This document shows, one piece after another, positions 10,392 through 57,375 of a stretch of 64,000 nucleotides of DNA. Location: positions 186,001 through 250,000 of the forward strand of contig NW_024704804.1 in assembly GCF_018977255.1 (NCBI RefSeq), in the 5' to 3' direction. A program made the translations under genes and the position numbers. The DNA is from Callorhinchus milii (lineage: Eukaryota). The stretch's first letter is position 1. The number at the start of each line of letters is the position of its first letter. The notes below the pieces were generated by a model that was not told where the DNA came from, ran no database searches, and saw nothing but the letters and a program-made list of their open reading frames with translations.

Positions 10392-10491
10392 ATGTTGAGG
10401 GCTGTAGCCTACTTTCCGTGGCAGTATTTGCCAACAATTTATCGGATACTGATAGTTTATTATCCTATTCTTGCAGCTATTGGTATTACAG
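10392..10491 (+). CDS. GPR139/GPR142-like GPCR copy 1, exon 1
   Basis: acaATG with an in-frame stop just upstream. Reads MLRAVAYFPWQYLPTIYRILIVYYPILAAIGIT (N-terminus and first half of TM1). Phase-1 donor G|GTAATA. Confidence 0.88.
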
Positions 10492-10969
10492 GTAATAAGT
10501 TACAGCAGCATTTTACTTGTTCTACAAGCTTTTTTATGGCACACTCATCTACGTTTCCTTGCCCAGCTGTGCCTCCTATTCCGCTGATGTCTTTTTTGAT
10601 GTCTCCAGAAGGATATGATTCTGTGGTTGGCTCAACCCTCTCTGCTCTCGCTGTGAGACTGATAGTGTGACCCTTATGTTTGATGGCCTGCTCGCTACCT
10701 CGCGTGTAACTTAGGTGACCATAGACACAATCCAAGCGAAATATCTTCCGGTCTGATCTGATGATCGCTCAAAATGGTGTGATGTGAAGACATTGAGCGT
10801 CCAGTGTTTCAGGACATATTGGCTGTAAGAATGTCTGACGGTGGGGATGTGTGAGCATATGAGCGAGTCAGCGGCTGGACGGGCCAGTTCTGTCAGTAGG
10901 TTGAGAGCCAGAGAGATTCCAGGGTAGGAACGGTTTGCAGATGTTTTGACAATCTTGATACCCTTGTAT

Positions 10970-11220
10970 CAAGGGCGAAACCTTGGGCAAGTTTCCTTAC
11001 TCCACACAGAGCCTAATAATAATCCCTCCAAAACCAAAAACAATAATAAATTGGTCATTTTCAATCCACGACTGTTTGTGGGACATTGCTGTGCGCCATC
11101 GGCCGCCGCGTTCGCCCACAAATATACAGTCAATTCACTTTACAGTGTGTTCTGTGAAGCGCTTTGGGACGTCCTCCCGACGTGAAAAGCGCTATATTAA
11201 ATGCAAGGATTATTATTATT
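10970..11220 (+). mobile_element. 5'-truncated SINE in the copy 1 intron
   Basis: agggcgaaaccttgggcaag...atgcaaggattattattatt. Absent from the introns of copies 2-4. Confidence 0.88.
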
Positions 11221-12214
11221 GTGTTTTCTAGGAAGGAGGCAGGGAAGCCTGGCAAGTACTAGATTGATGGAACTGCGGAGATTATAGGAGTGAGGATATG
11301 TTGGTGTTTTGAATGAGATGAATGTTGTGAACAGAATAGCTGGGCAGTCCACGGAGAAAAGCATTGGAGAACCACGGAATCATTGGTATCTGATCAACAA
11401 TAGAATGATTGAATTGTTTTCAATTATTTTGTAACTTCATTTTAATCAATGCAAGAAATGCTGGAAGCTTTCTTTCCCAAAATAAAATAACCAAGTAGAA
11501 CAGATACATGTGATCAAGTTTATTTGCGTTTAGATGCGAAATTTTAATGCGTGTGTGCCCTTTACATATTTTGATTTTATTGTGAATTATGCTTTCGTAA
11601 TGTATATTTTTAGCAATAATAGTGGAAATGTTATCTTCGTCTTAAACAATTGTAGGCGGATTTCCAATTCATGTTCTCGTATGAACGGAACACATATTTA
11701 TGTTAATTTTGATCCACAAATTTCAGGTTATCGTCAAAGCATTTACTTCACCAGATCCTACCAAATGTTGACATAATTCTGAATATAGAAGAATGATGAA
11801 TATTGCAATCTACCAACTTTATTTCGTGGATGCTTATCCAGGGAACGTGGAGAAACTTCATTCTATTTTATGGTAATGTCACAGGAGATCGTTTGTGTCC
11901 AAATGAATAGACGAAAGGCAGAGAATGAGTTTGAACATCTTATATGTTATTCGGTTTTCCTTAGTCTGTAGTTCATTGGTTAAATTATATATGTAGCTCA
12001 GTGGTTGGCGCAGTCGCCTAACAAGTGAGATAACTATGTTTGAACCCTTCAATCTCTCTTAATAATGCATTCAAAATATTTTTGAAAACAAATGATTAAT
12101 TCAATCCATGAACATTGGTGGAGAACAGCTCTGTGAATGCAGTTCGAGCAAAATACCTTCAAATTACGCAGCTAACAGTTAAATATGTTTGATTGCTGTT
12201 CACTTATCTCACAG

Positions 12215-13113
12215 GGAACTTGTTGGCCATTGTGGTCCTGTCCCGAGGAAAGTGTGGGCTCTCAAAATGTATCACCCTCTACATGGTGGCCATGGCAGTG
12301 GCCGATCTCCTGTTCGCCATCACCGAAGTGGTTTTGAACCACATACATTCTCTGTATTTCAATCACACATTTCTGGACATCACTCCCGTGTGTTCACTCA
12401 GATTGGTGCTGATGTCGGCGGTGACACACATGTCAGTCTGGTTCACAGTGGCTTTCACCTTTGATCGCCTGGTCGCCATCTGTTGGGTGAAACTGAAAAC
12501 GAGTTATTGCACCGAGAGAACAGCAGCCGTGGTTGTAGGAGTGATTTCTTCTCTGAGCTGTTTCATCAGCATTCCCTGGTACCTTATGTATGAGCCCAGA
12601 GAGATACTGAACAAAGTTCCTTGGTTTTGCAAGTTCAAAGTGGTTTACTACACCTCTCCCACATCGATTGTATTTCACTGGTTTGACACTATAATAACTC
12701 CGTTTGTTCCATTCTTTCTGATTCTGCTGATGAATGTGGTGACAGTCAGACACATTTTAGCTTCGAATAGAATCCGCAGAAACCTCCTGCAACAGAAAAA
12801 TGAAAATGGCATTGATGCAGAGATTGAGAATCGAAGAAAATCAATCATCTTACTCTTCGCAATATCAGGCAGCTTCATCCTGTTGTGGCTAATGTATGTT
12901 TTAAATTTTATATTTTTGCGAACCTTAGTCAATTACTTCTACCAAAGCTACAGAGACCCAGTGTTTGTTGTCCAAGAAGTGACTGACATGCTTAAGGTTT
13001 TGAGTTGCTGCACAAACACCGTCATTTATGCTTCAACACAATCTAAGTTCAGAGAGGATGTCAAATATCTTGTGATCTTTCCGTTTAAACACATATTTAA
13101 CCTATTTAAATAA
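12215..13113 (+). CDS. GPR139/GPR142-like GPCR copy 1, exon 2 (spliced product 332 aa)
   Basis: ctcacAG acceptor at 12213-12214; 100+899 nt = 333 codons including stop. Class A motifs GNLL, MAVADLL, TM3 Cys, FTFDRLVAIC, ECL2 Cys, PFVPF, NRRKS..LFAIS..F..LW and SCCTNTVIY. Confidence 0.93.
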
Positions 13114-14829
13114 AGGAAAATGCGTGGCACTCGATGTAATTTGTGAAATATTAACAACGAGCCATCGTCTATTGGGACAATTGGTAGCTTCCGAAAGTGT
13201 TTTACAGAATATACTGTGAAGTAGGTTCCAATTAACGGATGAATGGGGCTCCTTGGTCTATAAGCCTTCTTGTTGCTCCGTGAAAGTGCCTCCAGATACA
13301 TTCATATTTTTATTATTATTATTAATATCATTAATTTATTCCAGCTTCCTTTCAAACTACGCTCAGGAAAAGTCAACAAGGATCAATTACGTGTTGCCGT
13401 TTAACCAGAAAATTGTTTTAAACATAAACTCATCACGAGGAAAATCGTGAATTAAAGATAAATGAAACATTATTCAAATAATTGTTTGTTCGGCAAGTTG
13501 AGGTAACAGCCAATTTCATATGTTAAGAAGGTTAGAAATGCAAAAGGGAGAGGAGGGTGACGTGGCTCAGTTGGTAAGTAACAACAACTTGTACGTTTAT
13601 GTGAGGCTATTGGATGAGGAGAGGATCGTGGTGGCTTCTAAAATAAAGGAATTCAATCCTGTATTGGTATTTGGTTAATTTTAAAGGGAAGAAAATCGAG
13701 CCTTCTCTTGAGGACTGCATTTATCAGTCATTTACAGATGTTTCGAGAGTTGTGACAAATTATGTGGCAAATAAGCACTGAAAAGTTATCCTGTAAAACA
13801 TTTGCACCAGTAGCTGAATTGTATAGAGTTAACCGTTCCGCCTTTCGTTTTATTTGATGAGTTACCTTATCAGCTAATAAACAGTTCACCTAATTTGAAC
13901 AAAGCCATTGTGTCATGTTGTATTCTCTTGTTACTCTAAAGTTTGGCAATCACATGCTAAGCATGTGATTGATTAGAGAAATGCTCGCCTTCCTGACCCA
14001 CTGCACCAATGGCCGGTATTATTCCACTCTCCACACTGAGGCCTCCCAACAGTCGGCTCCTGCTGCTGCCACACGAGGAAGTTCAACAGGGAGGGAGCGC
14101 AAAGTTAGAAGGTTGTAAATGGTATCTCGTCAAATACTTTCACCACCGGGACACATGCGGCCGTCATTTGGACACCACTTTTGTAAAGTATCGAGGCAGT
14201 GTATTGTGCAAGTAATTGTGACTGACAAATTGCAGTGAAGTGAGCGTCCAATTTGTATTGATGGTGTTGTCAGCCAGGACTCCAGGAGAAACTCACTTAG
14301 ATTTTTGATGCATGTCATTGTGCAGAATATTGTCAAACAAATACACACATACAGACTTACCCAAAAACACACACACACACATCGACACACACACACAACA
14401 GCACAGAAGCACAGAATCACAAACACAGACAGATAAACACTCACAAACACACGCAGATATGTAAAGAGGGAACGAAACACATAGGCATATATGCAAACAG
14501 AGACACACACATACACACTCACAGAACACTCAAACGCGCACAGACAGGAACACAGTCGCAACCAACAACAAGAAAAACTTCAAATTGTATAGCGCCCTCC
14601 ATGCCGCGGGTTGTCCAAGTGACATACGCGCAGACAGAGAGAAACACACAGGAAACGGTATATTGGAAAGTATGATACATGTGATGCCAAGCAACTGCAA
14701 GAAGTTTGGAAGGAAAACGAGATGGATTTCCGTGATCTTTGGCTCAGGAGATTCCTATTTTCTTATGTTCTTATGATCGTATCCCAGACAGATGTGCAAC
14801 AAAGTCAAACGCCGTTAATATCTTATGGT

Positions 14830-15110
14830 TCCTGCTCATTAAACGGTCAGCGGGAAGATTCGCCACAGATCAGAGTTGATCCCGCTATCATTTGAACAGG
14901 GACTGCACTCTGTATAAAATTCTCTGTGCAAATGTGCTTGAATGTACAAGGATTATACTTGTTATCAGTGTTGCGGAATGCCACCTCTCCCCGCTCAATA
15001 TCCAGGTGTTCTCAAAGGACCAGTGATTCTCTCTCAGGCGGGTACTCGTTGAGGTCAGAGCTTCATATTCATCCCCAATTCTCAGTCACAATCGAAGATT
15101 GAATCTTGTT
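14830..15110 (-). pseudogene. Decayed B30.2/SPRY exon 3' half
   Basis: Reverse complement aligns by eye to 3680-3955 (gatgaatatgaagct..cctgagagaga..cctggatattgag..cacagagaa..ctga(c)agtttaatgagcaggaa). No open frame. Confidence 0.7.
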
Positions 15111-15608
15111 GTGAACTGTCACACAACGGGACAGGTATGAGCCCAAAAGTTCTTCATTTGATCGTCAGCGAGACACATTGGTGCTCAGGCAGCAAGAAGA
15201 ACGAGTTAGGACGACTTTAAAAAAACTGACACCCATCAAATCAATTTAATTTTTCACAGTACGGAACAATAACTTTGCAAATTCGTGAAAGAATTTTTTT
15301 TAAGTTGATTACAAATTTATATTAGTATAACGCATATCAATTTGAGAGGTCAAGGCAAATTCTCACCGTATTCATCAACTTGGGGATCAGAGCTGAATGG
15401 GGTGATTTGGGGAAAGATGATCCCTGGTGAGGGCAAACATATAGGTCTTGGGACAGACTTGGATAAGTTAAACCAGGGTGTCAGACAAAACAACTGCGAA
15501 ATGGAGATACAGAATTTGTCCAGAATGGCTGAAAGCCCCATGTGCGGGTAACGTGAGGTATTTCAAGCTGCCTGGCAATGCTGGAAGGTAGAAAGTACAT
15601 TCTTGCTT

Positions 15609-15935
15609 GTGGAGTCCTGAAGCTCAGTGTTTAGAGAACTCGCCTTGCAAGCGAGGCAGCTGAGTTCAATTCCAGGCAGGGCGAAACATTTGGTAATTTG
15701 ATTACTCCACACCTCACATAATAATCTCTCCGAAACTAAATATTCATACATTGGTCATATTCAATCCACGACTGTTTGTGGGACGCTTCTGTGCACAATT
15801 GGCTTCCGCTACTCGCCCACAAATACACAGTTAATTCACTTTCCAGTCTAATCTGTCAAGAAGACGTGAAAAGCGATATATCAAATGCAAGGATTGTTAT
15901 TAGTTTTATTATAATTATTATTATTATTACTATGA
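15609..15935 (+). mobile_element. tRNA-derived SINE shared by three duplication units
   Basis: Same head-side flank (cttcttgcttgtggagtcc) as the copies at 21945-22262(-) and 51780-52105(-), so it predates the duplications. Confidence 0.85.
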
Positions 15936-16949
15936 TAATTATCTGGATGTGACAGAAGTAGGTTGGTGGAGAAACGTTGATCCTTATGGATAGGGGCATG
16001 GATAGCCAATGGAGGACAGTTTACCAGCTGGTCGTGTACACAGCGGAATCCAGCGGACATGGCTTGCTGTTCGAGGGCTCAACTCAGCACCAATCTACGC
16101 AAACAGTATTTCAGTCAGCGAATAGCGAACTTGTGCAACAGGCTCCCGAGTGAGATGGTTGAAGCAGAAAGTGTTGATTCTTTGAAACACAGATTAAATA
16201 GTTTTATTTGAGGAAATAACACTGTGAGATATAACACACAGGTGTTCGGGACATATGTGCGTGCTACTGCATGGCAGGTGGAAGGCAAACTAGCTGGGTC
16301 TTGATCTTTTTCCATTCAGCATTTCGGATACTATTCTGTTCTTGAAACACATGAGTTACCGAGATCTTGATGTTTGGCCGGTTGTGCAGGGCAGAGCTGT
16401 GGAAGCTCACATTCAGAGCGTTAGTGCTGTCAATCCGATGTCTGTACAGAGCAAATACACCTTGCAATTGCACAGCGCCTCGCACATAGGGTAGGAGAGT
16501 AGTGGAGCACCGCTATGAGGCGGTGTGAACGGGGAATGACAGGGGCAAGGTCGACTCGGAAGTTCTTCAGAAGAGACCAGAAGACGGGAAGGATGGGGCA
16601 AAGATTGGGGATAGGGGAAGTGTGTTCCAGGATTTCGGGGCGAAGTGACTCAAAACATTGACCACAAATGGTGGAATGGAGAGCAAATCGAGGGACACAT
16701 GTTGTTGCGTGTTGGGTAGTAAACAGGTCACAAACGCAGCAATGTGCCTGGGCAAGAGTGGATTCAGTACACGAGTTTGAGTTTCTTGAAATCGACCTGA
16801 TGGTTGATGGAGAGAACTCGAATCCTTGGCTAGAAATAGTATGACAGGTGCTCGGAGAACAGTACCAGTCAGTATGCGGGCCCGATATTTTGGGATATCT
16901 ATCCTCCTCAGTCTTGACAATGCGAATGGATTCAGCAGCCGTAGCCACT

Positions 16950-18817
16950 TGCGGGAAAGTATTCTAGATTTCCATTGAAGCTTGGGTGAAAAATGCTCCT
17001 AATTTCCCTCTTAAATGGCCTAGCTTTAGTTATAACAACACGTCCCCTTGTTCTGGATTTCCCAACCAGTGGTAATAGTGTATCTGTATCTTCCGTATTG
17101 AATCACAGTACCAATTTAAAAGCCCTCAATGGGATCAATCTGCAACCTTCTCAAATCAGGACAACAGAGAACACGTTCATGTCATCTGTCTTCATAATTC
17201 ACCTATTTTATCCCAGGTATAATTTTGTTGAATCTGCCATGTACCCACTCCAGACCCAATATATCCTTTCTGTGGTGCGATGCCTAAAACTGAACTGATC
17301 TCCAGATGGGTCAGACCGTTCTATAAAGATGAGGCATCATTTCCTACCCTTTATATTCCAGCCTATATCTCATTTCTAAATAATAAATAATAATAGTAGT
17401 AATAATATACTATAATATATTAATAATAATATATAATAATAATATATAATCATTGCATTTGTTATAGCGCCTTTCACGTTTCCTAGACGTCTCAAGGCGC
17501 TTCACAGTATATATAATAAGGTAAATTGACTATATATTTAAGGTCGAAAACGGCAGCTATTTGCGCACAACAGTGTCTCACAAACAGTCCTGTAATAAGT
17601 GACTAAAGTATTAATATTTTTTTGTTTGGTGTTTTATTATCCCCGGAAAAGCGATCGGCCAATCGACTAAGAACCAGGTTCCTACTTAATGCTCAGTAAA
17701 CAGGTTCGTTGAGATTTGGGAAAGTTTCATAACATTTTGCATTTCTTTTATTGATAATCTTTTGTGACTGTGAGCTTGGCTTCAGTGAACTGTGTACGTG
17801 GGCTCACAAATCCCTTTGCGTTCCCGAGTGCTTAGTTTCTCACGCTTTAGAAATTTTCTGCATTGCTATATTTGGGGCCATCGTGGACGGTCTCACAAAA
17901 CCACACATTGAATTCCATCTGCCTCAGTTTTGTGCGCTCAATTTATCTCTCAAACTCACTTTGAAACCTTCTGCTTCTCTCTAAGAATTTACTGTGGGGC
18001 CTAATTTTGTGTCTTCTACAGATTTGGATACACATCTCTCAAATCCTTCATCCATGTCGTTTATATCTGCCCAAAAGCGGATGACCAAGCTCAAACACCT
18101 GGAGGAAACCGAATTTCCCGTCCTCTTAATCAGAGATTGTTCACTTTCTATCCTACCAACTGTTTCCTGCCTCGCACCCAATAACCGAGCCAAAGTGCGA
18201 TGTTTCCCCCAAATCCATTCTCTTTTTTTATTGCAATTGACATCTTGTGTGGAACTTAATCCAATGCCGTTTGAAAGAGCATTAGACGACATACATTGCC
18301 CTCTCTTAAGAACCATGTTCGTGGGCTTTTTCAGTCAATCAATCAGATTTGTAAGACATGATCTTCATTTCACAAATCAGCGCTGACGCTCTTTGATCTG
18401 TTCATATTTTCCAAATGCGGAGTTTCACGTTTTCTGATGAGAAATTCCAGTGATTTCCATACAAATGAAATGAAGCTGAAGAGCCTGTAGTTATTTCGTT
18501 TCTCTCTCTGTCCCTTCTTAAATAAAGGAGTGACATTGGCAATTCTCCAATCAAAGAGGACAATTCCCAAATGTAGAGAGGTTTGAAAAATTATGCATAA
18601 ATCATCTGGAATTTGATCCAATATTTATTTTCATGTGTGAGGTTGCAATATGTCGGGTCGTGGCGATGTGTTCATCCATATTTCCATTATATGCACAATT
18701 ACTGTGTTATTATTCACAATGAATCCATCTGATGCTTCTGTTTTCCTTATTTTTGCTTTCGCTTGTACCACCGTTATTTTGTCCTCTTCCTCAACTGAGA
18801 AAAGACAAGGAAACAAT
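16950..18817 (-). mobile_element. Decayed CR1-like LINE fragments with a partial SINE at ~17400-17630
   Basis: DWRIANVTPLFKKGQREKRNNYRL and INDMDEG...SKSVEDTKLG (degenerate RT FADDTKLG region). Confidence 0.78.
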
Positions 18818-18847
18818 NNNNNNNNNNNNNNNNNNNNNNNNNNNNNN
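18818..18847. other. Assembly gap (30 N)
   Basis: Run of N. Confidence 1.
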
Positions 18848-19620
18848 ACTGACGAGGAGGGTCCCAGAGGTGCACTAGACCCAGGATTGCATAGGGAGAA
18901 GCCGCAACTGCTTACCAAGATGTGGTGAGGTGTAGCCGGGTGGTGTGGCCTCCGTGAGGGGGAGGTGTCGCCTGGGGTGAGCCAGGTGTCCGTTAAGGCC
19001 ATGATGTCAACGGTCTCATCAAGGATGAGATCGTTGATGACCAGGGCCTCGTTACAGAGGGAGCGGACGTTTTGTAGTCCGACGTGGAGGCAGCGGTTGA
19101 CAGAAGGTTGTGTGGGAGGGGAGGGGGGTCCAGTTTGTGAGGCAGGGGTGTGGGAAACGGGGATAAGGGAGGACAGGTTGTCTCCACGGGCCTGTGTCCG
19201 GGGTGGCTGGTGAGTGTGGTGGGGAATGGGGCAGTCGGTGCAGCTGCTGCTGGACAGCCAACGCTAGTGCCACGGTGAGCCCGGCTGAGGATTCCCAGGC
19301 TGGAATAGTGGGAGTGTGTGGGATGGTCTAGTGGGATAGAAGGCGAGAGGTACGGAGAGAGGGGAGGACAGAGCGGGAGAGAAGCAGTGGGTGAAGGGTT
19401 TTGTGGGAGAGAGGAGGGGGGAGGGAGGGAGGGGATGTGCGGATGAGGGTCAGAGCGACAGTCATAGTGCGCAATCGCAGATCGGGAATGAGCGGTCAGG
19501 TGGATTGCATTAGCCCATAGGCTGGGGCTGGGGCAGCCAACCCAGCAGGACCATGGTGGGCCCTGATGCGAGCCCTGGGGGGTTGGGGGCTCAGAGTGAT
19601 TTTTTTGCTGTTGTGCGCTC
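18848..19620 (-). mobile_element. L2-like LINE, ORF2 N-terminal/endonuclease region, frameshifted
   Basis: VGLQNVRSLCNEALVINDLILDETVDIMALTDTWLTPGD on the minus strand. Confidence 0.82.

Positions 19621-24646: not shown

Positions 24647-24675
<29 letters not shown>
24407..24675 (+). mobile_element. 5'-truncated young SINE with a short target duplication
   Basis: Flanked by atctc...atctc. The empty site cacatctctcgccc is seen at ~40449. Confidence 0.88.
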
Positions 24676-24677
<2 letters not shown>

Positions 24678-25188: not shown

Positions 25189-26087
25189 TTACTTAAATAG
25201 TTTAAATATGTGTTTAAACGGATAGATCACTAGATATTTCACATCCTCTCTGAACTTAGATTGTGTTGAAGCGTAAATGACGGTGTTTGTGCAGCAACTC
25301 AAAACTTTAAGAATGTCTGTCACTTGTTCGACAACATACACTGGGTCTCTGTAACTTAGATAGTAATAACTGTTTAACGTTCGCATTAATATGAAATGTA
25401 AAACTTCCATCAGCCACAAAAGGATGAAGCTGCCTGATATGGCGAACAGTAAGATGATGGATCTTCTTCGGTTCTCCATTTCTGCATCATTGCCACTATT
25501 ACTTTTCTGGTGGAGGAGATTTCTGCGGATTCTGTTGGCCGCTAAAATGTGACTGACTGTCGACACGTTCATCAGCAAAATCAGAATGAATGGAAGAAAC
25601 GGAGTTATTATAGTGTCAAACCAGTGAAATACAATCCATGTGGGAGAGGTGTAGAAAACCGCTTTGGGCACGCAATCCCAAGGCACTTTGTTCAGTATCT
25701 CTCTGGGCTCATGCATAAAGTACCAGGGAATGCTGATGAAACAACTCAGAGAAGAAATCACTCCTACAACCACGGCTGCTGTTCTCTCGGTGCAATAACT
25801 TGTTTTCAGTTTCACCCAACAGATGGCGACCAGGCGATCAAAGGTGAAAGCCACTGTCAACCAGACTGACATGTGTGTCACCGCCGACATCAGCACCAAT
25901 CTGAGTGAACACACGGGAGTGATTTCCAGAAATGTGTGATTGAAATAAAGAGCATGTATCTGGTTCAAAACCACATCGTTGATGGCGAACAGGAGATCGG
26001 CCACTGCCATGGCCACCATGTAGCGGGTGATACATTTTGAGAGCCCACACTTTCCTCGGGACAGGACCACAATGGCCAACAGATTCG
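25189..26087 (-). CDS. GPR139/GPR142-like GPCR copy 2, exon 2
   Basis: Acceptor ttctcacAG, 899 nt, intact 7TM motifs. Confidence 0.93.
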
Positions 26088-27405
26088 CTGTGAGAAAGTG
26101 GAACAGCAAACAAACTTATTTACCTGTGCGCTGCGTAAGTTGATGGTATTTAGCTCAAAGTTCATTCACGCAGCAGTTTCCCATCAATACTCATGGATTG
26201 ATGGGCCCATTTTAAAAAAATTCAAAGCATTAATAAGGAATATTTAAATGATCAAACACAGGAATCAGGCTTGACAGGCGACTTCGGTAACCACTGAGCT
26301 GCAGATATTATTTAACCAATGAACTACAGACGAAAATAACCAGTAACATGTAAGAAGTTCTGCCGAATTCCCTGTCTGTCGCCTGTTCTGTTGGACATGA
26401 AAGATCTCCTGTGACACTACCAGAAAATAGAATGAACTATGTCCACATTTCCTGGCTATGTGTACACCAAATAATGTGTGTATTCTCAAATATGTATCGC
26501 GCTTCTCTGGTTACAATCATGTTAACATCTGACAGGACATTGTCAACTATATGCATTGAATATCATCTTAAAAATGTGGAACTTATTCAGTATCAACATG
26601 TGTTCCTGCAGATCAGAACATAGGTCCGAATATTCACTTCCACTAACGGAAGATGGCGTTAAAAATTCAACTGTGTAAATGTGAAAAGAATTCGGCTCAC
26701 GCACAGCATAATTCGCAGTAACGTCAAAAGAAATAGAGGGCTCAATCGAGCTATTTATAGTCGGACATGAAAATATCCAGATTCTCTATTTTCCACACTG
26801 GTCACCCCAACCCCCTCCATTCACAACATCCAACTCATTGAAAACAATTCCAAACAAGTCCACTCTCACACAATCTCCGCACTTCCATCACTCCAGTCCT
26901 CGCCAGGATTCCCTGCCTCCTTTCCAGAAAACACATTGAAATAAAGATACTCAACATATTTGCAAACCATTCCTTGCCCTGGCATAGCTCTGTCTCTCAA
27001 CCTACTGACAGCCCTGGCTCGCTCATCCGATCAATCCTTCCTCACCGCCAGACATTCTTACAGCCAATGTGTCCTGAAACACTGGAGGCCCAATGTCTCC
27101 AACTCACACCCTTTTGAGCGAACGTCAGATCAGACCGAAAGATATTCTTTTAGGACTGTACCTACGGTCACCATTGTAACACACGTAGTAACGAGCAGAC
27201 CCTCAAAGAAGAAAAGACACACTATCAGTCTCACAGCGAGAGTGGAGAAGGTTCAGCAAACGACAATATCTTATCTTTATAGAGACATCAAAAAAGACAT
27301 CAGCGGAACAGAAGTCACAGCTGGAGAAGTAGAAGTAGATGTGTGTGCCATACGCAAACTTCTGGTACATCGAGATACAAGTAAAAATTGTATCTAACTA
27401 ATTAC

Positions 27406-27505
27406 CTGCAATACCAATAGCTGCAAGAATAGGATAATAAACTATCATTATCCGAAAAAGTGTTGGCAGATACTGCCACGGAATGAAGGCTATAGCCTTC
27501 AACAT
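27406..27505 (-). CDS. GPCR copy 2, exon 1
   Basis: ATG at 27505, MLKAIAFIPWQYLPTLFRIMIVYYPILAAIGIA, donor G|GTAATT. TATAAA at 27564-27559. Confidence 0.88.
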
Positions 27506-33371: not shown

Positions 33372-33471
33372 CTGTAATACCAATAGCTGCAAGAATAGGA
33401 TAATAAATTATCATTATCCGAAAAAGTGTTGGCAGGTACTGCCACGGAAAGAAGGCTATAGGCCTCAACAT
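33372..33471 (-). pseudogene. Orphan GPCR exon 1 (own exon 2 deleted); possible alternative first exon
   Basis: Intact ATG, MLRPIAFFPWQYLPTLFRIMIIYYPILAAIGIT and a G|GTTATG donor. Intron homology stops at ~33080 and abuts sequence matching the 3' flank of the other copies (~33050 and below). Confidence 0.82.
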
Positions 33472-38445: not shown

Positions 38446-38499
38446 CTTTTATTCAGGCAGCAGGTCATCGGCATCGATGAACACGTTGTTAACGAAATA

Positions 38500-38858
38500 A
38501 TCTAACGATTATTAGAAATGGAAATGTCAACGCGATTTTCAGCTGCTCTCTGAATTTAGTCTGAGTAACGGCATTATATACACGTGTTTGTACAGGAATT
38601 CAACAGCTGCAGCATTGCGCCAGTTTCATACAAAATGTGCAAAAGATCATTGGAGTCTATGTGGTGATCTTTATTCAAAATCGTCCAATATAAGATAACC
38701 GATACTTGTGTCATCCACAATAATGTAAAACTGGCGGAAACAGCAAATAGTAAAACGATGGATTTCCTTCTGTTCTTTATCTCCGGATCTCTGTCACTCG
38801 CTCCTCTATTCCAGTCCCCAGTGCTGTATCCCCGCAATCTACTGCGGGCTCGACTGGC
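38500..38858 (-). pseudogene. Truncated, frameshifted GPCR of a divergent GPR139-like subfamily (ICL3 to C-terminus)
   Basis: ASRARSRLRG...DPEIKNRRKSIVLLFAVSASFTLLW...MLQLLNSCTNTCI, then a +1 frameshift at ~38575, then AVTQTKFREQLKIALTFPF. Confidence 0.85.
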
Positions 38859-39080
38859 CTGACCCTGAGTGAGAGACCCGAGGATCCAGTAAGTCTCCCT
38901 CGTCTATGAGAGGATAAAGGTGTAATTTCACAACATTGAAGATATTTCTGATCTTGACGCTTTCTTGCACACTTGCACGGAGAAATTTATATTTCTTTCA
39001 TTCCCTGTTTGAATGATGGCTTGACAAACATTGAGGCATCGCGAGAGTTATTGTTGACAGTTTAATGAGGAGCAAAACCA
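38852..39080 (+). pseudogene. Decayed B30.2/SPRY remnant
   Basis: accctgagtgagagacccgagga..ctatgagagg..cacggagaaatttat..tgacagtttaatgag matches 3739-3950. Confidence 0.68.
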
Positions 39081-40966: not shown

Positions 40967-41865
40967 TTACTTAAATAGTTTAAATATATGTTTAAACGGA
41001 TAGTTCACGAGATATTTGACATCCTCTCTGAACTTAGATTGTGTTAAAGCGTAAATGACGGTGTTTGTGCAGCAACTCAAAACCTTAAGCATGTCTGTCA
41101 CTTGTTGGACAACATACACTGGGTCTCTGTAACTTTGGTAGAAATAATTGTCTAACGTTCGTAATAATATGAAATCTAAAACATACATCAGCCATAACAC
41201 GATGAAGCTGCCTGATATGGCGAAGAGTAAGATGATGGATTTTCTTCGATTCTCCATCTCTGCATCGTTGCCACTATTACTTTTCTGGTGCAGGAGGTTT
41301 CTGCGGATTCTGTTGGCAGCTAAAATGTGTCTGACTGTCACCACGTTCATCAGCAAAATCAGAAAGAATGGAACAAACGGGGTTATTATTGTGTCAAACC
41401 AATGATACACAATCCATGTGGGAGAATTGAAGTAAGCCACTTTGTACTGGCAATACCAAGGCACATTGTTCAGTATCTCACTGGGCTCAAACATAAAGTA
41501 CCAGGGAATGCTAATGAAACAGCTCAGAGAAGATATCACTCCTACGACTACAGCTGCTGTCCTCTCGGTGCAATAACTTGCTTTCAGTTTCACACAACAG
41601 ATGGCGACCCAGCGATCAAAGGTGAAAGCCACTGTGAACCAGACTGACATGTGTGTCACCGCCGACTTCAACACCAATCTGAGTGAACACACGGGAGTGA
41701 TGTCCATAAAAGTGTGATTGAAATAAAGAGAATGTATCTTGTTCAAAACCACATCGTTGATGGCGAACAGGATATCGGCCACTGCCATGGCCACCATGTA
41801 GATGGTGATACATTTTGAGAGCCCACACTTTCCCCGGGACAGGACCACAATGGCCAACAGATTCG
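40967..41865 (-). CDS. GPR139/GPR142-like GPCR copy 3, exon 2
   Basis: 899 nt and intact, with a DRW variant and Lys in mid-TM3. Confidence 0.93.
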
Positions 41866-43185
41866 CTGTGAGAAAATGGAACAGCAAACAAACATATTTA
41901 CCTGTGCGCTGCGTAAGTTGATGATATTTTGCTCAAAGTTCATTCACGCAGCATTTTCCCATCAATACTCATGGATTGATGGGTACATTAAAAAAACAAT
42001 TCAAGGCATTAATGAGGAATATTTAAATGAGCAAACACAGGTTTCCAGCTTGGCAGTCGACTCGGGTAAGCACTGAGCTGCAGATATTATTTAACCAATG
42101 AAGTACAGACGAAAATAACTGGTAATATGTAAGAAGTTCTACCTAATTCCACGTTAGTCGCCTTTTCTGTGGGGCATGAAAGGTCCCCTGTGACACTACC
42201 ATAAAATCTAATGAACTATCTCCATATTTCCTGGCCATGTATACACCAAATATACTTTGTATCCTCAAACATTTACTGCGCTTCTCTGGTTACAATCATG
42301 TTACTTTCTGATAGGATAATGTCAAGTATATGCATTGTGTATAATCTGAAAGATGTGGACTTCATTTAATGTCAATGTGTGGAGCTGCAGATGAGAACAT
42401 AAAGCAGAAAATTCGCTTGCATTAATTGAAGATAATGCTAAAAATTCCACAATATTAATATGAAAAGAGTTCGACTCACGCACAGCACAATTCGCAATAA
42501 CGTCAAAATAAATGAAGGGCACAACCGTGCTATTTATGGTCAGACAACGACAATTTCGAGATTCTCAAATGTTTTTCTCACTTGTCACCCCAACACTCTC
42601 CATGTACAACATCCAGCTCATTCATAACAATTCCAACCATGTCCACACTCACAAAATCTCCGCACACCCTTCACTCCAGTCCTCGACACGATTCCCTGCC
42701 TCGTTTCCAGAAAACATATTGATATCAAGATACTCAAAACATATGCAAACCATTCCCTGCCCTGGCATGCTTCTGTCCCTCAACCTACTGACAGAATTGG
42801 CTCGCTCAACTGTGCAATCCTTCCTCAACGCCAGATATTCTTACAGCCCATGTGTCCTGAAACACTGGAGGCTCAATGTCTCCAACTCACACTTTGAGCG
42901 ACCGTCAGATCAGACCGAAAGATATTCTTTTAGGACTGTACCTACGGTCACCATTGTATCACGCGTAGTAACGAGCAGACGCTCACAGAAGTACGGACAC
43001 ACTATCAGTCTCACAGCGAGAGTGGAGAGGGTTCAGCAAACGCCAAAATTTTATCATCATAGAGACATGAAAAAAGATATCAGCGGAACAGAAGTCACAG
43101 CTGGAGAAGTAGAAGTAGATGTGTGTGCCATGCGCAAACTTATGGTACATCGGGATACAAGTAAAATTTGTATCTAACTAATTAC

Positions 43186-43285
43186 CTGCAATACCAATAG
43201 CTGCAAGAATAGGATAATAAACAATCATTATCCGAAAAAGTGTTGGCAAATACTGCCACGGAAAAAAGGCTATAGCCTTCAACAT
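43186..43285 (-). CDS. GPCR copy 3, exon 1
   Basis: ATG at 43285, MLKAIAFFPWQYLPTLFRIMIVYYPILAAIGIA, donor G|GTAATT. TATAAA at 43344-43339. Confidence 0.88.
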
Positions 43286-48849: not shown

Positions 48850-50700
48850 ATGTTTGCCTTCTCTTTTCACAGTAGAGGAAGTGGACAAAATAACGGAAAC
48901 CAAAAATAAGCGAAACCGAAGCATCAGATGTATTCATTATAAATAAAAACTCAGTAATTGTGCATATAATGGAAATAAGGATATAGCACATCGCCACGAC
49001 CCGACATATTGCAACCTCGTATATGACAACAAACATCGGAGCAAATTGCAGATGCGTCAGTCATAATTTTCCAAGTCTCTCCACATTTGGGAATTGTCCT
49101 CTTGGATTGGAGAATTGCAAATGTCACTCCTTTATTTAAGAAGGGATAGAGGGAGAAACGAAGTTACTGAAGGCTTTTCAGCTTCATTTCACTTGTATGG
49201 AAATCACTGGAATTTCTCATCAGGAAAAGTGTGACTCTGCATTTGGAAAATATGAATTGATCAAAGTGCGTCAGCGCGGATTTGTGAAAGGAAGATCATG
49301 TCTTACAAATCTGATTGATTAACTGAAAAAGCCCACTGACATGGTTCTTAAGAGAGGACAATGTATGTCGTCTAATGCTCTTTCAAAAGGCATTGGATTA
49401 AGTTCCACACAAGATGTCAATCGCAATAAAAAAGGAGAATGGATTTGGGGGAAACATCGCCCTTTGGCTCGGTAATTGGGTGCGAGGCAGGAAACAGTTG
49501 GTAGGATAGAAAGTGAACAATCTCTGATTAAGAGGACGGGAAATTCGGTTTCCTCCAGGTGTTTGAGCTTGGTCATCCGCTTTTGGGCATATATAAACGA
49601 CATGGATGAAGGATTTGAGAGATGTGTATCCAAATCTGTAGAAGACACAAAATTAGGCTGCACAGTAAATTCTTAGAGAGAAGCAGGAGGTTTCAAAGTG
49701 AGTTTGAGAGATAAAGCGAGCGGACAAAACTGAGTCAGATGGAATTCAATGTGGGGTTTTGTGAGGACATCCACGATGGCCCCAAATATAGCCATGAAGA
49801 ATATTTCCAAATCTTGAGAAACTATGAACTGTGCAAGGCAAAGGGATTTGAGAGCCCACGTACACAGTTCACTGAAACCAAGCTCACAGTCACAAAACAT
49901 TATCAATAGAAGAAATGCAAAATGTTATGAAACTTTCCCAAATCTCAACGACCCTGTTTACTGAGCAGTAAGTAGGAACCTGGTTCTTAGTCGATTGGCC
50001 GATCGCTTTTCCGGGGATAATAATACACCAAACAAAAAAATATTAATACTTTAGTCACTTATTACAGGACTGTTTGTGAGACACTGTTGTGCGCAAATAG
50101 CTGCCATTTTCGACCTTAAATATATAGTCAATTTACCTTATTATGTATACTGTGAAGCGCCTTGAGACGTCTAGGAAACGTGAAAGGCGCTATAACAAAT
50201 GCAATGATGATATATATATTATTATTAAACATTATTATTAATATATTATAGTATATTATTAGTACTATTATTACTTATTATTTAGAAATGAGATATAGGC
50301 TGGAATATAAAGGGTAGGAAATCAAGCCTCATCTTCATAGAACGGTCTGACCCATCTGGAGATCTGTTCAGTTTTAGGCATCGTACCACAGAAATGATTT
50401 GTTGGGTCCTGAGTGGGTACATGGCAGATTCAACAAAATTATACCTGCGATAAAATAGGTGAATTATGAAGACAGATGACATGAACGTGTTCTCTGTTGT
50501 CCTGATTTGAGAAGGTTGCAGATTGATCCCATTGAGGGATTCTAAATTAGTACTGTGATTCAATACGGAAGATACAGATACACTATTACCACTGGTTGGG
50601 AAATCCAGAACAAGGGGACATATTGTTAAAACTAAAGCTCGGCCATTTTAGAGAGAAATTAGGAGCAGTTTTCACTCAAACTTCAATGGAAATCTAGAAC
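48850..50700 (+). mobile_element. CR1-like fragments with a partial SINE (inverted copy of 16950-18817)
   Basis: ggattggagaattgcaaatgtcactcctttatttaagaaggg; YINDMDEGFERCVSKSVEDTKLG. Confidence 0.78.
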
Positions 50701-51779
50701 ACTCTCCCGCAAGTGGCTAGGGCTGCTGAATCCATTCGCTTCGTCAAGACTGAGATGGATTGATATCCCAAAATATCGTGCCCGCATACCGACTGGTACT
50801 GTTCTCCGAGCACCTGTCACACTAGTTCTAGCCAAGGATTCCTGGCTCTCCGTCAACCATCGGGTCGATTTCAAAAACTTATACTCGTGTACTGAATCCA
50901 CTCTTGCCCAGGCACATTGCTGCGTTTGTGACCTGTTTACTACCCAACACGCAACAACATGTGTCCCCTCGATTTGCTCCTGCTTTCTTCATATCCCTCG
51001 TGCTGCCCATTCCACCATTTGTGGTCAATGTTTTGATTCAGCTCGCCCCGAAATCCTGGAGCACACTTCCCCTATCCCCAATCTTTGCCCCATCCTTCCA
51101 GTCTTCTGGTCTCTTCTGAAGAACTTCCGAGTCGACCTTGCCCCTGTCATGACCCGTTCACACCGCCTCATAGCGGTGCTCCACTACTCTCCTACGCTCT
51201 GAAGTGCCACCCTATGTGAGAGGCGCTGTATAATTGCAAGGTGTATTTGTTATGTGCAAAACATCGGCTTGACAGCACTAACTCTCTGATTGCGAGCTTC
51301 CACAGCACTGCGCTGCACAACTATTAAAACATCAAGATCTCGGTAACTCATGTGTTTCAAGAACAGAATAGTATCCGAAATGCTGAATGGAAAAAGATCA
51401 AGACCCAGCTAGTTTGCCTTCCACCTGCCATGCGGTCGCATGCACATATGTCCCGAACTCCTGTGTGTTATATCTCACAGCGTTATTTCCTCAAATAAAA
51501 CTATTTAATCTGTGTTTCAAAGAATCAACACTTCTTGCTTCAACCGTCTCCCTCGGGAGCCCTGTTGCACCTGTTCCCTATTCGTTGACTGACATAGTGA
51601 TTGCGTAGATTGGTGCTGAGTTGTGCCCTCGAACCGCAAGCGGTGACCGCTGGATTCCGCAGCGGACAAAATACACGACCAGCCAGTAAACCACTGTCTA
51701 ACTGTCCTCCATTGGCTGTCCATGCTCCTGTCCATGAGGATCAAAGTTTTGCCACTAACCTACTTCTGTCACATCCAGA

Positions 51780-52105
51780 TAATAATAATAAAAATAATTA
51801 TACTTGCATTTGATATATCGCTTTTCACGTCTTCTCGACACCTCAAAGTGCTGCACAGAATAGACTGTAAAGTGGTTTGACTGTATATTTGTGGGCGAAT
51901 AGCGGAAGACAGTTGCGCACAGAAGGGTCCCACAAAGAGTGGTGGATTGAAGATGACCAATTTATTTTTGTTTTGTTTTGGAGGGATTATTATGTGGCGT
52001 GTGGAGTAATGAAACTCACCGAAGATTTCGCCCTGCCTGGAACTAAACACAGGTGTCTCCCTAGTAAGGAGAGTGCTCTAACCACTGAGTTACAGGACTC
52101 CACAA
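51780..52105 (-). mobile_element. tRNA-derived SINE
   Basis: Same insertion site as 15609-15935. Confidence 0.82.
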
Positions 52106-52616
52106 GCAAGAAGGTACTCTCTACGCTCCAACATTACGCGGCTGCATGAAATACCTCACATTACACACACCGTGGGGCTTTCAGCCATTCTGGACACACT
52201 CTGTATCTCTATTCCGCAGTTGTTTTGTCTGACACCTTGATTTAACTTATCCAAGTCTGTCTCAAGACCTCTATCTTTGCCCTCATCAGGGATCATCTTT
52301 CCCCAACTTACCCCAGTTCAGCTATGACCCCCCCACTTCGATGAATGCGGTGAGCATTTACCTTGAGCTCCCAAATTGATACGCGGTCTATGAGTGTAAA
52401 TTTGTAATCAAATTGCAACAAATTTCTTTCAAGGATTTGCAATATTATTGTATCGTATTGTGAAAAATTAAATTGGTATGATGGCTTCAGTTTCTTTAAG
52501 AAGTCCTGATAGGATCATCTTGCTACCTGAGCCCAATGTTCTCGCTGACGATCAAATGAAGAACTTCAGGGCTCACACCTGTCCCGTTGTGTGACAGTTC
52601 AGAACAAGACTCAAAC

Positions 52617-52890
52617 TTGGATTGTGACTGAGAATTGGGGATGAATATGAAGCTCTGACCTCACCTGGTACCCGCCTGAGAGAGAAACGCTGGTCCTCGG
52701 GAGTCCACCTCGACACTGGGGTGGGACAGGTGGCATTCTGCAGCACTGATAATATGTCTCAACCGTACGATCTCAAACACACTTGCACAGAAAAGTTTAT
52801 TCTTACTTCAGTCCCTGTGCAGATGATTGCGGGATCAACACTGATTCGTGGCGAATGTTCCCGCTGACAGTTTAATGAGCAGGAACCATT
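52617..52890 (+). pseudogene. Decayed B30.2/SPRY exon 3' half
   Basis: Paralogous to 22770-23045 and 14830-15110. Confidence 0.72.
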
Positions 52891-53705
52891 AGATATGAAC
52901 GGCGTTTGATTTTTTTCACCGCTGTCTGGGATACGATCATAAGAACATAACAAAATAGGAATTTCCTGAGCCAAACATGAAATCCCTCTCGATTGCCTTC
53001 CAACCTTCTTGCAGTCCCTTGGCATGACTTGTACAAAACTTTCCAATGCATCTATGTCTATGTGTGTCTCTCTCTGTCTGTGCGTATGTAACTGGGACAA
53101 CCCTGCAAGGAGGGAGCTATACAAATTTATGTTTTCCTTGTTGTTGTTAGCGACTCTGCTCGTGTCTGTGTGTGCGTTTTGTGAGTGTGAATGTGTGCGT
53201 CTCTGTTTGCATATGTGCCTGTGCATTTCATTCGCTCTTTACATATCTGTGTGCGTTTGTGTGTGTTTATCTGTCTTTGATTGTAATTCTGTGATGTTGT
53301 GTGTGTGTGCGTCGGTGTGTGTGTTTGTGGCTAAGTCTCTCTATATATATTTGTTTGTCCATATTCTGGAGAATGACATGTATCAAAAATAGAAGTGAGT
53401 TTCTCCTGGTTTCCTGGCTGACAACACCATCAATAAATATTGGACGCTCACTTCACTGCAATTTGATAACTACAATCACTTACGCAATACACTGCCTCGA
53501 TACTTTACAAAAGGCATGTCCAAATGGCGTCACGCGGGCCACATGTGTCCCGGTGGTGAATTTTTTTGGCGAGATACCATTTCCAACCTTCAACCATCCC
53601 CTCCCTCCCTGTTGAACGTCCTCGTGTGGCAGCAGGAGGACCCGGCGGTTGGGAGGCCTCAGTGCGGAGAGTGGAATAATACCGGCCATTGCTGCAGTGG
53701 GTCAC

Positions 53706-54030
53706 GAATAATAATAATAATAATCCTTGCATTTGATATAGCGCTTTTCCAGTCGGGAGGACGTCCCAAAGCGCTTCACAGAACACACTGTAAAGTGAAT
53801 TGACTGTATATTTGTGGGCGAACGCGGCAGCCAATCGCGCACAGCAATGTCACACAAACAGTCGTAGATTGAAAATGACCAACTTATTATTGTTTTTTTT
53901 TTTGAAGGGATTATTATTAGGCTCTGTGTGGAGTAAGGAAACTTGCCCAAGGTTTCGCCCTGTCTGGAATTGAACTCAGGTCTCTCGCTTGCAAAGCGAG
54001 TGCTCTAACCACTGAGCTACAGGACTCCAC
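53706..54030 (-). mobile_element. Young full-length tRNA-derived SINE specific to the copy 4 unit
   Basis: Interrupts gcagtgggtca|gcgagcatt, which is contiguous in the other four units. Confidence 0.92.
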
Positions 54031-55065
54031 AGCGAGCATTTGTCTAATCAATCACACCGTTAGCCACCGCCAACTCCTCCAGATGCAGATAGTGATTGCC
54101 GCGCGGCTGATAACAGCGATAACAAACTCCAGCATTGCTGGGGTCAACGCACCTACAGACTCGAATTGAATTTCCAAACTTTAGAGTAACAAGAGAATAC
54201 AATATGAAACAGTTGCTTTGTTCAAATTAGGTAAATTGTTTATTAGCTGATAAGGTAACTCAGCAAATAACGAAAGGCGGAACAGAAACTGTATACAATT
54301 CAGCTACTAGTACAAGTATCTTACAGGTAAATTTTCAGTGTGCCTTTGCATCATAATTTGTCACAACTCTCGAAGCATCTGTAAATGACTAATAAATGCA
54401 GTCCTCAAGACAACACTCGATTTTCTTCCTTTTAAAATTAACCAAAGACCAATACACGATTAAATTCCTTTATTTTAGAAGCCACCTCGATCCTCTCCTC
54501 ACCCAATAGCCCCACATAAACGAACAAGCTGCTGTTCCTTCCCAATTGAACCACGTCTCCCTACTCTCTCTTTTGCATTTATAACCTTCTTAACATATAG
54601 GGTTGGCCGTTACATCAACTTGCCTAATCAACAAGTATTTGAATAATCTATTCATTTATTTTTAGTCACATTTTTGCTCGTGATGAGTTTATGTTTAAAA
54701 AAACATTCTGGTTAAACAGCAACACGCATTTGCTCCTTGTTGATTTTGTCTGAGCGTATTTTGAAAGGAATCTGGAATAAAATACTAATAGTAGTAATAA
54801 TTATATCAAAGTATCTGGAAGCAATTTCGCTGAGCAACAAGGTGGCTTACAGATCATGAAGCCCCATTCATTCGTTAATTGGAACCTATTTGACAGTATA
54901 TTCTGTGAAAGCCTTTCAGATGGCGTGGTAATGTTCTATATCCATTACAAGGATTATGATTAGTGCAGTGCACCGATTTAAATAAAAGCCAGGCTATCAG
55001 TTGCTCATTAAATTATGATTCGTTTTCAACTTTTCACAAATTAAACGAGTGGCACACGTTTCATT

Positions 55066-55964
55066 TTACTTATTTAGATTAAATATGTGGTTAAACGGAT
55101 AGATGACAAGATATTTGACACTCTCTCTGAACTTAGATTGTGTTAAAGCATAAATGACTGTATTTGTGCAGCAACTCAAAACCATCAGCATGTCTGTCAC
55201 TTGTTGGACAATAAACACTGGGTCATTGTAACTGATGTAGAAATAATTGTCCAACGTTCGTAATAATATGAACTCTAAAACATACATCAGCCATAACACG
55301 ATGAAGCTGCCGGATATGGCGAAGAGTAAGATAATGGATTTCCTTCGATTCCCCATCTCTGCATCACTGAGACTATTGCTTCTCTGGTGCAGGAGTTTTC
55401 TGCGGATTCTGTTGGCCGCTAAAATGTGACTGACTGTCACCACGTTCATCAGCAAAATCAGAAAGAATGGAACAAACGGGGATATTATAGTGTCAAACCA
55501 GTGGAACACAATCCATGTGGGAGAGGTGTAGAAAACCGCTTTGGCCTTGCAATACCAAGGCACTTGGTTCAGTATCTCTCTGGGCTCAAACATAAAGTAC
55601 CAGGGAATGCTGATGAAACAACTCAGAGCAGAAATCACTCCGACAACTACGGCTGCTGTTCTCTCGGTGCAATAACGTGTTTTCAGTTTCACCCAACAGA
55701 TGGCGACCAGGCGATCAAAGGTGAAAGCCACTGTGAACCAGACTGACATGTGTGTCACCGCCGACATCAGCACCAATCTGAGTGAACACACGGGAGTGAT
55801 GTCCAGAAATGTGTGATTGAAATAAAGAGAATGTATCTGGTTCAAAACCACATCGTTGATGGCGAACAGGAGATCGGCCACTGCCATGGCCACCATGTAG
55901 ACGGTGATACATTTTGAGAGCCCACACTTTCCCCGGGACAGGACCACAATGGCCAACAGATTCG
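55066..55964 (-). CDS. GPR139/GPR142-like GPCR copy 4, exon 2
   Basis: 899 nt, intact 7TM motifs. Confidence 0.93.
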
Positions 55965-57275
55965 CTGTGAGAAAGTGGAACAGCAAACAAACATATTTAC
56001 CTGTGCGCTGCGTAAGTTGATGGTATTTAGCTCAAAGTTCATTCACGCAGCAGTTTCCCATCAATACTCATGGATTGATGGGCCCATTTAAAAAAAATTC
56101 AAAGCATTAATAAGGAATATTGAAATGATCAAACACAGGAATCGCGCTTGACAGGCGACTTCGGTAACCACTGAGCTGCAGATATTATTTAACCAATGAA
56201 CTACAGACGAAAATAACCAGTAACATGTAAGAAGTTCTGCCGAATTCCCTCTCTGTCGCCTGTTCTGTTGGACATGAAAGATCTCCTGTGACACTACCAG
56301 AAAATAGAAAGAACTACGTCCACATTTCCTGACCATGTATACACCGAACAAAGTGTGTATCCTCAAATATTTATTGCGCTTCTCTGGTTACAATCATGTT
56401 AATTTCTGATATGATAATGTCAAGTATATGCATTGCGTATAATCTGAAAGATGTGCACTTCATTTAATGTCAATGTGTGGAGCTGCAGGTGAGAACATAA
56501 AGCCGAAAATTCGCTTCCACTAATTGAAGATAACGCTAAAAATTCCACTATATTAATATGAAAAAGTTCGACTCACGCACAGCACAATTCGCAATAACGT
56601 CAAAATAAATCAAGGGCACAACCGTGCTATTTATGGTCAGACAACGAAAATTTCGAGATGCTCAAATATTTTTCTCACTTGTCACCCCAGCCCCCTCCAT
56701 GCACAGCATCCAGCTCATTCAATACAAGTCCAAAGGTGTCCACTCTCACACAATCTCCGCACACCCTTCACTCCAGTCATCGCCAGGAATCCCTGCATCC
56801 TTTCCAGAAAACACATTGATATAAAGATATTCAAAATATTTGCAAACCATTCCTTGCACTGACATACCTCTGTCTCTCAACCTAATGACAGAACTGGCTC
56901 ACTCATCCGATCAATCCTTCCTCACCGCCAGGCATTCTTACAGCCAATGTGTCGTGAAACACTGAAGTCTCAACGTCTCCAACTCATACCCTTTTGAGCG
57001 ACCGTCAGATCAGACCGAAAGATATTCTTTTAGGACTGTACCTCCTGTCACCATTGTAACACGCGTAGACACTCAACGAAGAAGGGACCCACTATCAGTC
57101 TCACAGCGAGTGTGGAGAGGGTTCAGCAAACGACAATATCTTATCTTTATAGAGACATCAAAAAAGACATCAGCTTAACAGAAGTCACAGCTGGAGAAGT
57201 AGAAATAGATATGTGTGCCATGCGCAAACTTGTGGTACATCGTGATACAAGTAAAATTTGTATCTAACTAATTAC

Positions 57276-57375
57276 CTGCAATACCAATAGCTGCAAGAAT
57301 AGGATAATAAACTATCATTATCCGAAATAGTGTTGGCAGATACTGCCACGGAATGAAGGCTACAGCCCTCAACAT
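57276..57375 (-). CDS. GPCR copy 4, exon 1
   Basis: ATG at 57375, MLRAVAFIPWQYLPTLFRIMIVYYPILAAIGIA, donor G|GTAATT. TATAAA at 57434-57429. Confidence 0.88.

Follow-up and report, generated by a model that had tools for sequence, protein, structure and literature searches.

The 64,000-nucleotide (nt) stretch of the Callorhinchus milii genome analysed here (the window; contig NW_024704804.1, positions 186,001 to 250,000, or G000:C63:186001-250000 in the 0.99 Gb searched) contains four intact, closely similar genes for class A GPCRs (G-protein-coupled receptors), which raises the question of what they are for. All four come from a family of about 500 copies in this genome, which is likely to serve as a repertoire of chemical sensors, most probably in sensory neurons. 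We give this reading a probability of roughly one half.

Each gene has an exon 1 of 100 nt and an exon 2 of 899 nt, separated by a GT-AG intron (1723, 1318, 1320 and 1311 nt in copies 1 to 4, respectively), and encodes 332 amino acids. 7tm_1 (PF00001) is the sole Pfam domain at E ≤ 0.01 in all four. Pairwise, the copies are 85-88% identical in amino acids and 90-92% in nucleotides, with a ratio of nonsynonymous to synonymous rates (dN/dS, or omega) of 0.35-0.57. An earlier note made from the sequence alone had described this uniform architecture correctly. The motifs that it quoted in extracellular loop (ECL) 2, transmembrane helix (TM) 6 and ECL3 are all present in their places, and the methionine-to-lysine exchange that it noticed in copy 3 falls at residue 100, which is position 3.32. 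Its description as a tandem expansion holds in that the copies are clustered duplicates, but the array is not purely head-to-tail, because copy 1, on the plus strand, is inverted relative to copies 2-4 on the minus strand. Blocks within 4190-18815 form an inverted duplicate of 64000-48851 with 81-88% identity.

On the evidence of the 7tm_1 domain, a seven-helix model and the microswitch residues, the proteins are class A (rhodopsin-like) GPCRs. The microswitches D2.50, C3.25, DR3.50, P5.50, W6.48, N7.49 and Y7.53 are each present in 120-122 of 122 aligned proteins, and C3.25 and the ECL2 cysteine in 121 each; P6.50 occurs in none, and P7.50 is absent throughout. The AlphaFold model has seven helices and an ECL2 hairpin (pLDDT 83, pTM 0.79). 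Three cytoplasmic cysteines in intracellular loop (ICL) 1 and ICL2 (residues 47, 123 and 132) are invariant in all 122 family proteins and may mark a lipid or metal site.

The family is not GPR139, as the earlier note had recognized. A true GPR139 gene lies at C16 of the same genome and a GPR142-like gene, 55% identical to GPR139, at C20; the family has about 30% identity with GPR139. In a 32-protein tree, the expansion forms one clade (100/99). Its sister (100/99) is a gene present at roughly one copy per species in frogs, salamanders, a caecilian and sturgeon, and next outward come a coelacanth/teleost clade (97/95), the clade of the gene L076 (98/96) and amphioxus genes (93/85). GPR139 and GPR142 fall outside the clade of the expansion and the GPR210-like genes, in agreement with a quick 71-protein tree (96 SH-aLRT). 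GPR139 orthology was rejected, a forced clade with GPR139/142 failing the approximately unbiased test (p-AU 0.000175). A single intron two bases before N1.50 is common to GPR139, GPR142, L076 and the family. Nor do the sequences belong to the OR, TAAR, V1R or V2R families, since PF00001 alone is detected and the tree places them among GPR210-like genes. In the three aligned proteins of the sister gene (P0217 and its relatives), N replaces D2.50 and a basic residue occupies position 6.51; the gene is a candidate for a search for the ancestral ligand.

Orthologues of L076 (G000:C3:52770786-52771628) occur in sharks, rays, coelacanth, lungfish, sturgeon, gar and many teleosts. The gene is a conserved orphan receptor mislabelled as GPR139 and is likely GPR210A; no tetrapod occurs among the 120 matches listed for it. 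GPR210A and GPR210B were named by Rinne et al. (2019; PMC6504862; this and the other papers identified below are cited from the parts available) from two coelacanth Ensembl identifiers 1393 apart, as orphans known from coelacanth, gar and teleost genes. Between the coelacanth UniProt accessions of the two low-copy clades, the gap is 1393 when the letter O is left out of the count and 1433 otherwise. Because the former gap equals that of the Ensembl identifiers, we assign the names GPR210A and GPR210B to these clades, a naming based on accession arithmetic. A third, unnamed gar/coelacanth subtype in the available part of that paper may correspond to the sister gene. The search of this genome turned up no GPR210B orthologue. 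By sequence, the family nests in the GPR210 lineage, apart from GPR139/142.

A protein search returned 2081 relatives. The closest named matches were Callorhinchus milii proteins (93% and 87%), and the best 120 of the 2081 were all from chimaera, sharks and rays, usually under the automatic name 'probable G-protein coupled receptor 139'. Within the genome, 1110 candidates were obtained by protein search and 132 were scored, every one of them a match. A DNA pattern for a TM3 motif, present in 112 of the 120 proteins and absent from GPR139, GPR142 and GPR210A/B, gave 500 matches genome-wide versus 1 for the reversed control. As this count takes in pseudogenes and perhaps alleles, and 43 sampled exons collapsed into 31 groups at 99% identity, we estimate 350-500 distinct loci. 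Among 58 close loci, a sample biased towards good matches, exon 2 was open in 50 and broken in 8. Two dead copies lie in the window itself, both beyond what the earlier note had listed: one reduced to exon 1, the other a remnant of a distant subfamily (Table 1). A chimaera-only subfamily is supported at 100/100. With its clustered copies, pseudogenes and lineage-specific subfamilies, this is a birth-and-death multigene family, as had been proposed. The earlier note understated its scale, however, which reaches about 500 loci here and includes chimaeras, sharks and rays, in a lineage that can be named GPR210-like.

In this family, cartilaginous fishes apparently possess a very large set of receptors that has escaped description, hidden under the GPR139 label. 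A literature search for expansions of GPR139, GPR142, GPR210 or orphan GPCRs in chondrichthyans, and for expression of the family, found no description among the papers listed; most subscription journals lay outside its coverage, and a description may exist. The family is not mentioned in the available parts of the papers on the catshark (PMC11979771), whale shark (PMC8455134, 12 of 24 supplements), silver chimaera (PMC12952989), elephant shark (PMC3964593, supplement) and shark olfactory repertoire (PMC10116579), or of a 2026 olfactory-receptor preprint (10.64898/2026.08.31.747588).

For the selection analysis, the 58 close loci were reduced to 32 sequences by dropping 15 without a full 899-nt exon 2 or a clean acceptor, 2 exact duplicates and 9 outer members. 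Site models were run with our own code, with kappa fixed and branch lengths derived from nucleotides and rescaled. On a single tree of the 32 paralogues, twice the log-likelihood difference (2dL) was 76 for M7 versus M8, the comparison proposed in the earlier note, and 62 for M8a versus M8, with 8% of sites at omega 3.0 and 12 of the 13 flagged sites in the outer half; a 41-sequence set gave similar single-tree results. However, the copies have mosaic ancestry (p 0.004 in an incompatibility test), and single-tree models were set aside as a final test because such ancestry alone inflates their statistic. With 2, 3, 4 and 6 segment trees, the M1a/M2a statistic fell from 57 to 42, 49, 25 and 37, respectively. 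In 40 null simulations that lacked positive selection and used mosaic trees of six blocks, a grain that defines their scope, recombination alone produced a mean false 2dL of 10.5 and maxima of 27 (one tree) and 7 (three trees). The observed values of 57 and 49 exceed all 40 runs. Positive selection outlasts the recombination-aware null, and gene conversion inflates it.

This signal of omega above 1 applies to the whole gene and to two individual sites; it is not established for each site of ECL2 or TM6. Residues 55 (2.41, intracellular) and 76 (2x62) are the only ones above 0.9 in all four segment-tree runs, and residues 79, 159 and 277 exceed this value in one run. Whole-gene omega is 0.52-0.59, and about 40% of sites fit omega = 1. 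The outer half evolves at omega 0.70 (0.58-0.88) versus 0.43 (0.35-0.52) for the inner half, with similar dS. Among the four window copies, variable sites number 15/46 from the top of TM4 through ECL2 to the top of TM5 and 15/38 from the top of TM6 through ECL3 to the top of TM7. The hot spots that the earlier note placed here do evolve fast, but support for omega above 1 at their individual sites is lost once gene conversion is modelled. Its view of TM1-TM4 as nearly invariant fits the inner segments TM1-ICL1-TM2 (2/32) and TM3-ICL2-TM4 (6/45), but not the outer segment TM2-ECL1-TM3 (7/39), which contains the best-supported selected site, residue 76. ICL3 does vary (10/16), but not beyond the synonymous rate (omega 0.40-0.64), and was rejected as a selected region. 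At residue 55 (e.g., window 12275-12277), L, R, V, F and I are exchanged by single-base changes, which the pocket model leaves unexplained.

Divergence is concentrated at the predicted ligand pocket, in line with the central claim of the earlier note. We defined the pocket by the 14 helix positions at which GPR139 touches its agonist (Zhou et al., PMC8807744), mapped by sequence alignment and not by superposed structures. Their joint omega is 1.16-1.31. The remaining helix positions reach 0.36-0.38 (permutation p 0.0003-0.0013), and those in the outer half outside the pocket 0.50-0.52 (p 0.002-0.007), a pattern other than uniform purifying selection. Six of the 14 positions vary among the four window copies, compared with 30 of 194 other helix positions, and the 32 paralogues carry 24 different pocket strings. 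Residue 76 aligns with GPR139 F85 (2x62); S3x33, W6x48 and F6x55 are invariant and D7x38 nearly so. On this alignment, the pocket excess over other helix positions is firm.

The promoters provide a hint of the cell type. From 64 loci tried, some sampled twice, we obtained 27 TATA-anchored promoters, which collapse to 16 lineages; the remaining loci were without a detectable exon 1, an intact exon 2 or a TATA box. The sites that we call EBF/O-E-like and C/EBP-type are named from consensus sequences that we take to be the accepted ones. An EBF/O-E-like site, allowing one mismatch, lies within 40 nt before the TATA box in 8 of 16 lineages versus 8 of 352 intron bins. In a screen of 15 motifs at two window sizes, the loose EBF motif alone survived correction (6/16 versus 6/185 bins, p 7e-5). 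Weak enrichment (p 0.01-0.04) was seen for forkhead-like, C/EBP and one homeodomain motif, and no corrected enrichment was found in the 16 lineages for homeodomain, RUNX, PU.1-like, GATA, Oct, E-box, RFX, NF-kB or IRF motifs. Enrichment of O/E sites together with TATA is typical of mouse OR promoters (PMC3247239). One large subfamily (L123, L131, L134, L135, L138, L143 and L144) has a GC instead of a GT donor at its single coding intron; because the proximal EBF-like site is absent, it may be regulated differently.

A single ancestral GPR210-like gene gave rise to the many copies in cartilaginous fishes through local duplications, often in inverted orientation. The copies exchange segments, and some die; purifying selection maintains the cytoplasmic half, and the positions lining the pocket evolve roughly threefold faster than the rest of the helices. 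A constant G-protein-coupling face and a variable pocket would give many ligand specificities with one output, and the prediction is that each receptor has its own ligand, either a water-borne peptide or a polar molecule of small size. The C3.25-ECL2 disulfide and the ECL2 hairpin, which are absent in GPR139, point to an open pocket of the peptide-receptor type, and the disulfide-tied hairpin and polar pocket suggest peptide or amino-acid-like ligands, as in the wider clade (PMC8557429). The shared promoter with TATA and EBF/O-E-like sites would drive one cell class. GPR139 couples mainly to Gq/11 (PMC8807744), and the same coupling, assumed here by analogy, would suit shark nose neurons, which are microvillous and trpc2-positive (PMC11979771, PMC10116579). 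Chondrichthyans have large olfactory organs, very small OR, TAAR and V1R sets and modest V2R sets (PMC10116579). More tentatively, and at somewhat less than even odds, the family may be an unrecognized vertebrate chemoreceptor family of the neuropeptide-receptor lineage (GPR210-like), more than ten times the size of the V2R set, with one or a few members per sensory neuron. On this view it would dominate among the receptors of the nose in sharks, rays and chimaeras, overturning the idea that smell in these animals relies on a few dozen V2Rs.

Several observations weigh against a chemosensory repertoire. The O/E match needs one mismatch, an exact match occurring in 1 of 16 lineages; the EBF-like site is found in none of the four GC-donor lineages; the homeodomain motif TAATKR, the partner of O/E in OR promoters, is present in 7/16 lineages versus 46/185 bins (p 0.09); and since the lineages share ancestry, they are not 16 independent cases. 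EBF is also a B-cell factor, so the promoters leave the tissue undecided. The main rival is a set of innate-immune sensors on leukocytes, similar to FPR or MRGPR and diversified by microbial or parasite peptides. EBF and forkhead-like sites (the latter in 9 of 16 lineages) would fit B cells, the g1 promoter carries two C/EBP-type sites, and the cluster lies among interleaved RING-B-box-SPRY TRIM genes; pocket diversification with gene conversion would suit an arms race. Within 150 nt, 3 of 16 lineages carry a C/EBP site, compared with 7 of 185 intron bins (uncorrected p 0.035), an enrichment lost on correction for 30 tests, and RUNX, PU.1-like, NF-kB, IRF, Oct and GATA motifs are unenriched. 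The known GPCR repertoires of leukocytes are far below 500, and TRIM proximity may reflect shared use of a duplication-prone region. We consider immune sensing unlikely, although it is the most probable of the alternatives.

The receptors could instead respond to endogenous or conspecific peptides (neuropeptides, or secretions of reproductive or skin origin) acting in the brain, the gonad or epithelia, like their protostome relatives. EBF acts in many neurons, and the model has a peptide-receptor-like ECL2 hairpin; the receptors of the wider clade bind peptides with aromatic amidated C-termini (PMC8557429). However, such receptors are usually low-copy and conserved, as is the amphibian sister gene (66-74% identity between salamander and frogs or a caecilian). 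We also know of no matching expansion of ligand genes and regard this explanation as quite improbable. A little less probable again is a mere by-product of a duplication-prone region, i.e., receptors for a single class of ligand that are redundant and drift as constraint is relaxed. The high whole-gene omega, the many sites that fit omega = 1, the collapse of sampled exons at 99% identity and the false signal from recombination alone speak for drift. Two further points count against the chemosensory reading: the interval for the pocket group (0.86-1.48, three trees) includes or touches 1, so relaxed constraint is possible at most sites, and residue 55, which ranks with residue 76 as most robustly selected, is intracellular. 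Drift does not predict the threefold pocket excess, a residual selection signal beyond every null run, the 50 open frames among 58 or the persistence of many old subfamilies in both holocephalans and elasmobranchs. A chemosensory repertoire remains the explanation that we prefer. That the receptors are tuned to different ligands and serve either immune or chemosensory functions, as the earlier note suggested, we likewise infer.

Cartilaginous fishes have been described as GPCR-poor (PMC8455134). Hundreds of intact receptors with fast-evolving pockets change this count, whatever the tissue. If they are olfactory, they would constitute a new vertebrate chemoreceptor class; if immune, they would be an unusually large germline set of GPCR sensors. 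The low-copy amphibian sister gene offers a tractable handle on the ancestral ligand.

Table 1. Receptor genes, promoter elements, remnants and a neighbouring gene in the window (window coordinates)
Feature	Position	Strand	Details
Copy 1 (g1)	10392..13113; exon 1 10392-10491, exon 2 12215-13113	+	332 aa; Pfam 7tm_1, E 9e-25
Copy 2 (g2)	25189..27505; exon 1 27505-27406, exon 2 26087-25189	-	332 aa; Pfam 7tm_1
Copy 3 (g3)	40967..43285; exon 1 43285-43186, exon 2 41865-40967	-	332 aa; Pfam 7tm_1; K at 3.32
Copy 4 (g4)	55066..57375; exon 1 57375-57276, exon 2 55964-55066	-	332 aa; Pfam 7tm_1
Fifth copy	33372..33471	-	promoter and open exon 1 remain; exon 2 removed by deletion
Degenerate 3' piece from a distant subfamily within the family	38492..38885	-	55-63% identity to L078; stops and frameshift
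TATA box of g1	10333..10340	+	59 nt before ATG; same place in all copies
EBF/O-E-like site, g1 promoter	10210..10219	+	-123 from TATA; consensus presumed
C/EBP-type sites, g1 promoter	9880..9889 (palindromic), 10280-10289	+	-452 and -52 from TATA; consensus presumed
PRY-SPRY exon of neighbouring TRIM gene (context, apart from the receptors)	3360..3938	+	RING/B-box exon just left of the window

TRIM exons of the RING-B-box and PRY-SPRY types flank the cluster on both sides in inverted orientation, at the window exon of Table 1 and L157:8682-9596 (+) and at L155:253-894 and 4998-5525 (-). SPRY remnants also lie within the duplicated units, at about 14829-15007 and 52628-52908. Elsewhere in the genome, a small tandem cluster of single-exon receptors (L101 and L102, G000:C14:11.64-11.66 Mb) presumably represents leukotriene-B4-receptor-like candidates, judging from their appearance.

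Seven contig sets that we guessed to be RNA-derived cover g3 or g4 at low depth and are partly unspliced. None contains the exon 1-exon 2 joint, a result that is uninformative on tissue or silence. In two sets of one study, a GT-AG joint links an intronic donor with an acceptor that lies within exon 2 (window 41334-41902), and one set has a second joint from an intronic segment to near the exon-2 acceptor (window 41864-42893). A search for the upstream letters of the spliced contigs failed to locate them in either the window or the genome (5 one-mismatch matches versus 14 for the control). These contigs are possibly non-coding spliced forms of a paralogue.

GPR139 and GPR142 are orphan receptors of vertebrates that respond to L-Trp, L-Phe and some peptides. 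GPR139 is the closest solved structure by family profile (7VUG/9M42, E 2e-17), and both receptors have the phase-1 intron, the missing P7.50 and the short N-terminus of the family. However, the family has C3.25 and the ECL2 cysteine and lacks P6.50, whereas GPR139 is the reverse. Among the 14 pocket residues, g3 and GPR139 have W6.48 and V7x30 alone in common, and E3x32, F3x33, H5x43, R6x51 and N7x38 of GPR139 are replaced in the family by M/K, S, D/V, Y/E and D, respectively. GPR210A and GPR210B resemble the family in having C3.25 and the ECL2 cysteine, and the expansion with its amphibian/sturgeon sister nests among them (98/96), with amphioxus outside. Unlike the family, they are low-copy (GPR210A has one match here, L076) and keep R6.51. 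In the available part of Rinne et al. (2019; PMC6504862), shark and chimaera have 0 occurrences, and no expansion is reported.

[quoted passage not shown] Their promoters also combine TATA with O/E-like sites, but homeodomain sites are not clearly enriched in the family. They differ in being of unrelated lineage; moreover, the coding region of the family is split by an intron, and its expression in sensory cells is a prediction. The protostome FMRFamide-, MIP- and myosuppressin-type receptors and nematode Srw receptors belong to the same ancient superclade (PMC8557429; Atlas neighbours with Srw domains), and their snail relatives, which are FMRFamide-receptor-like, reach about 450 copies in Lymnaea (PMC11589774). 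The expansion of the family is independent of these and started from a chordate GPR210-like gene.

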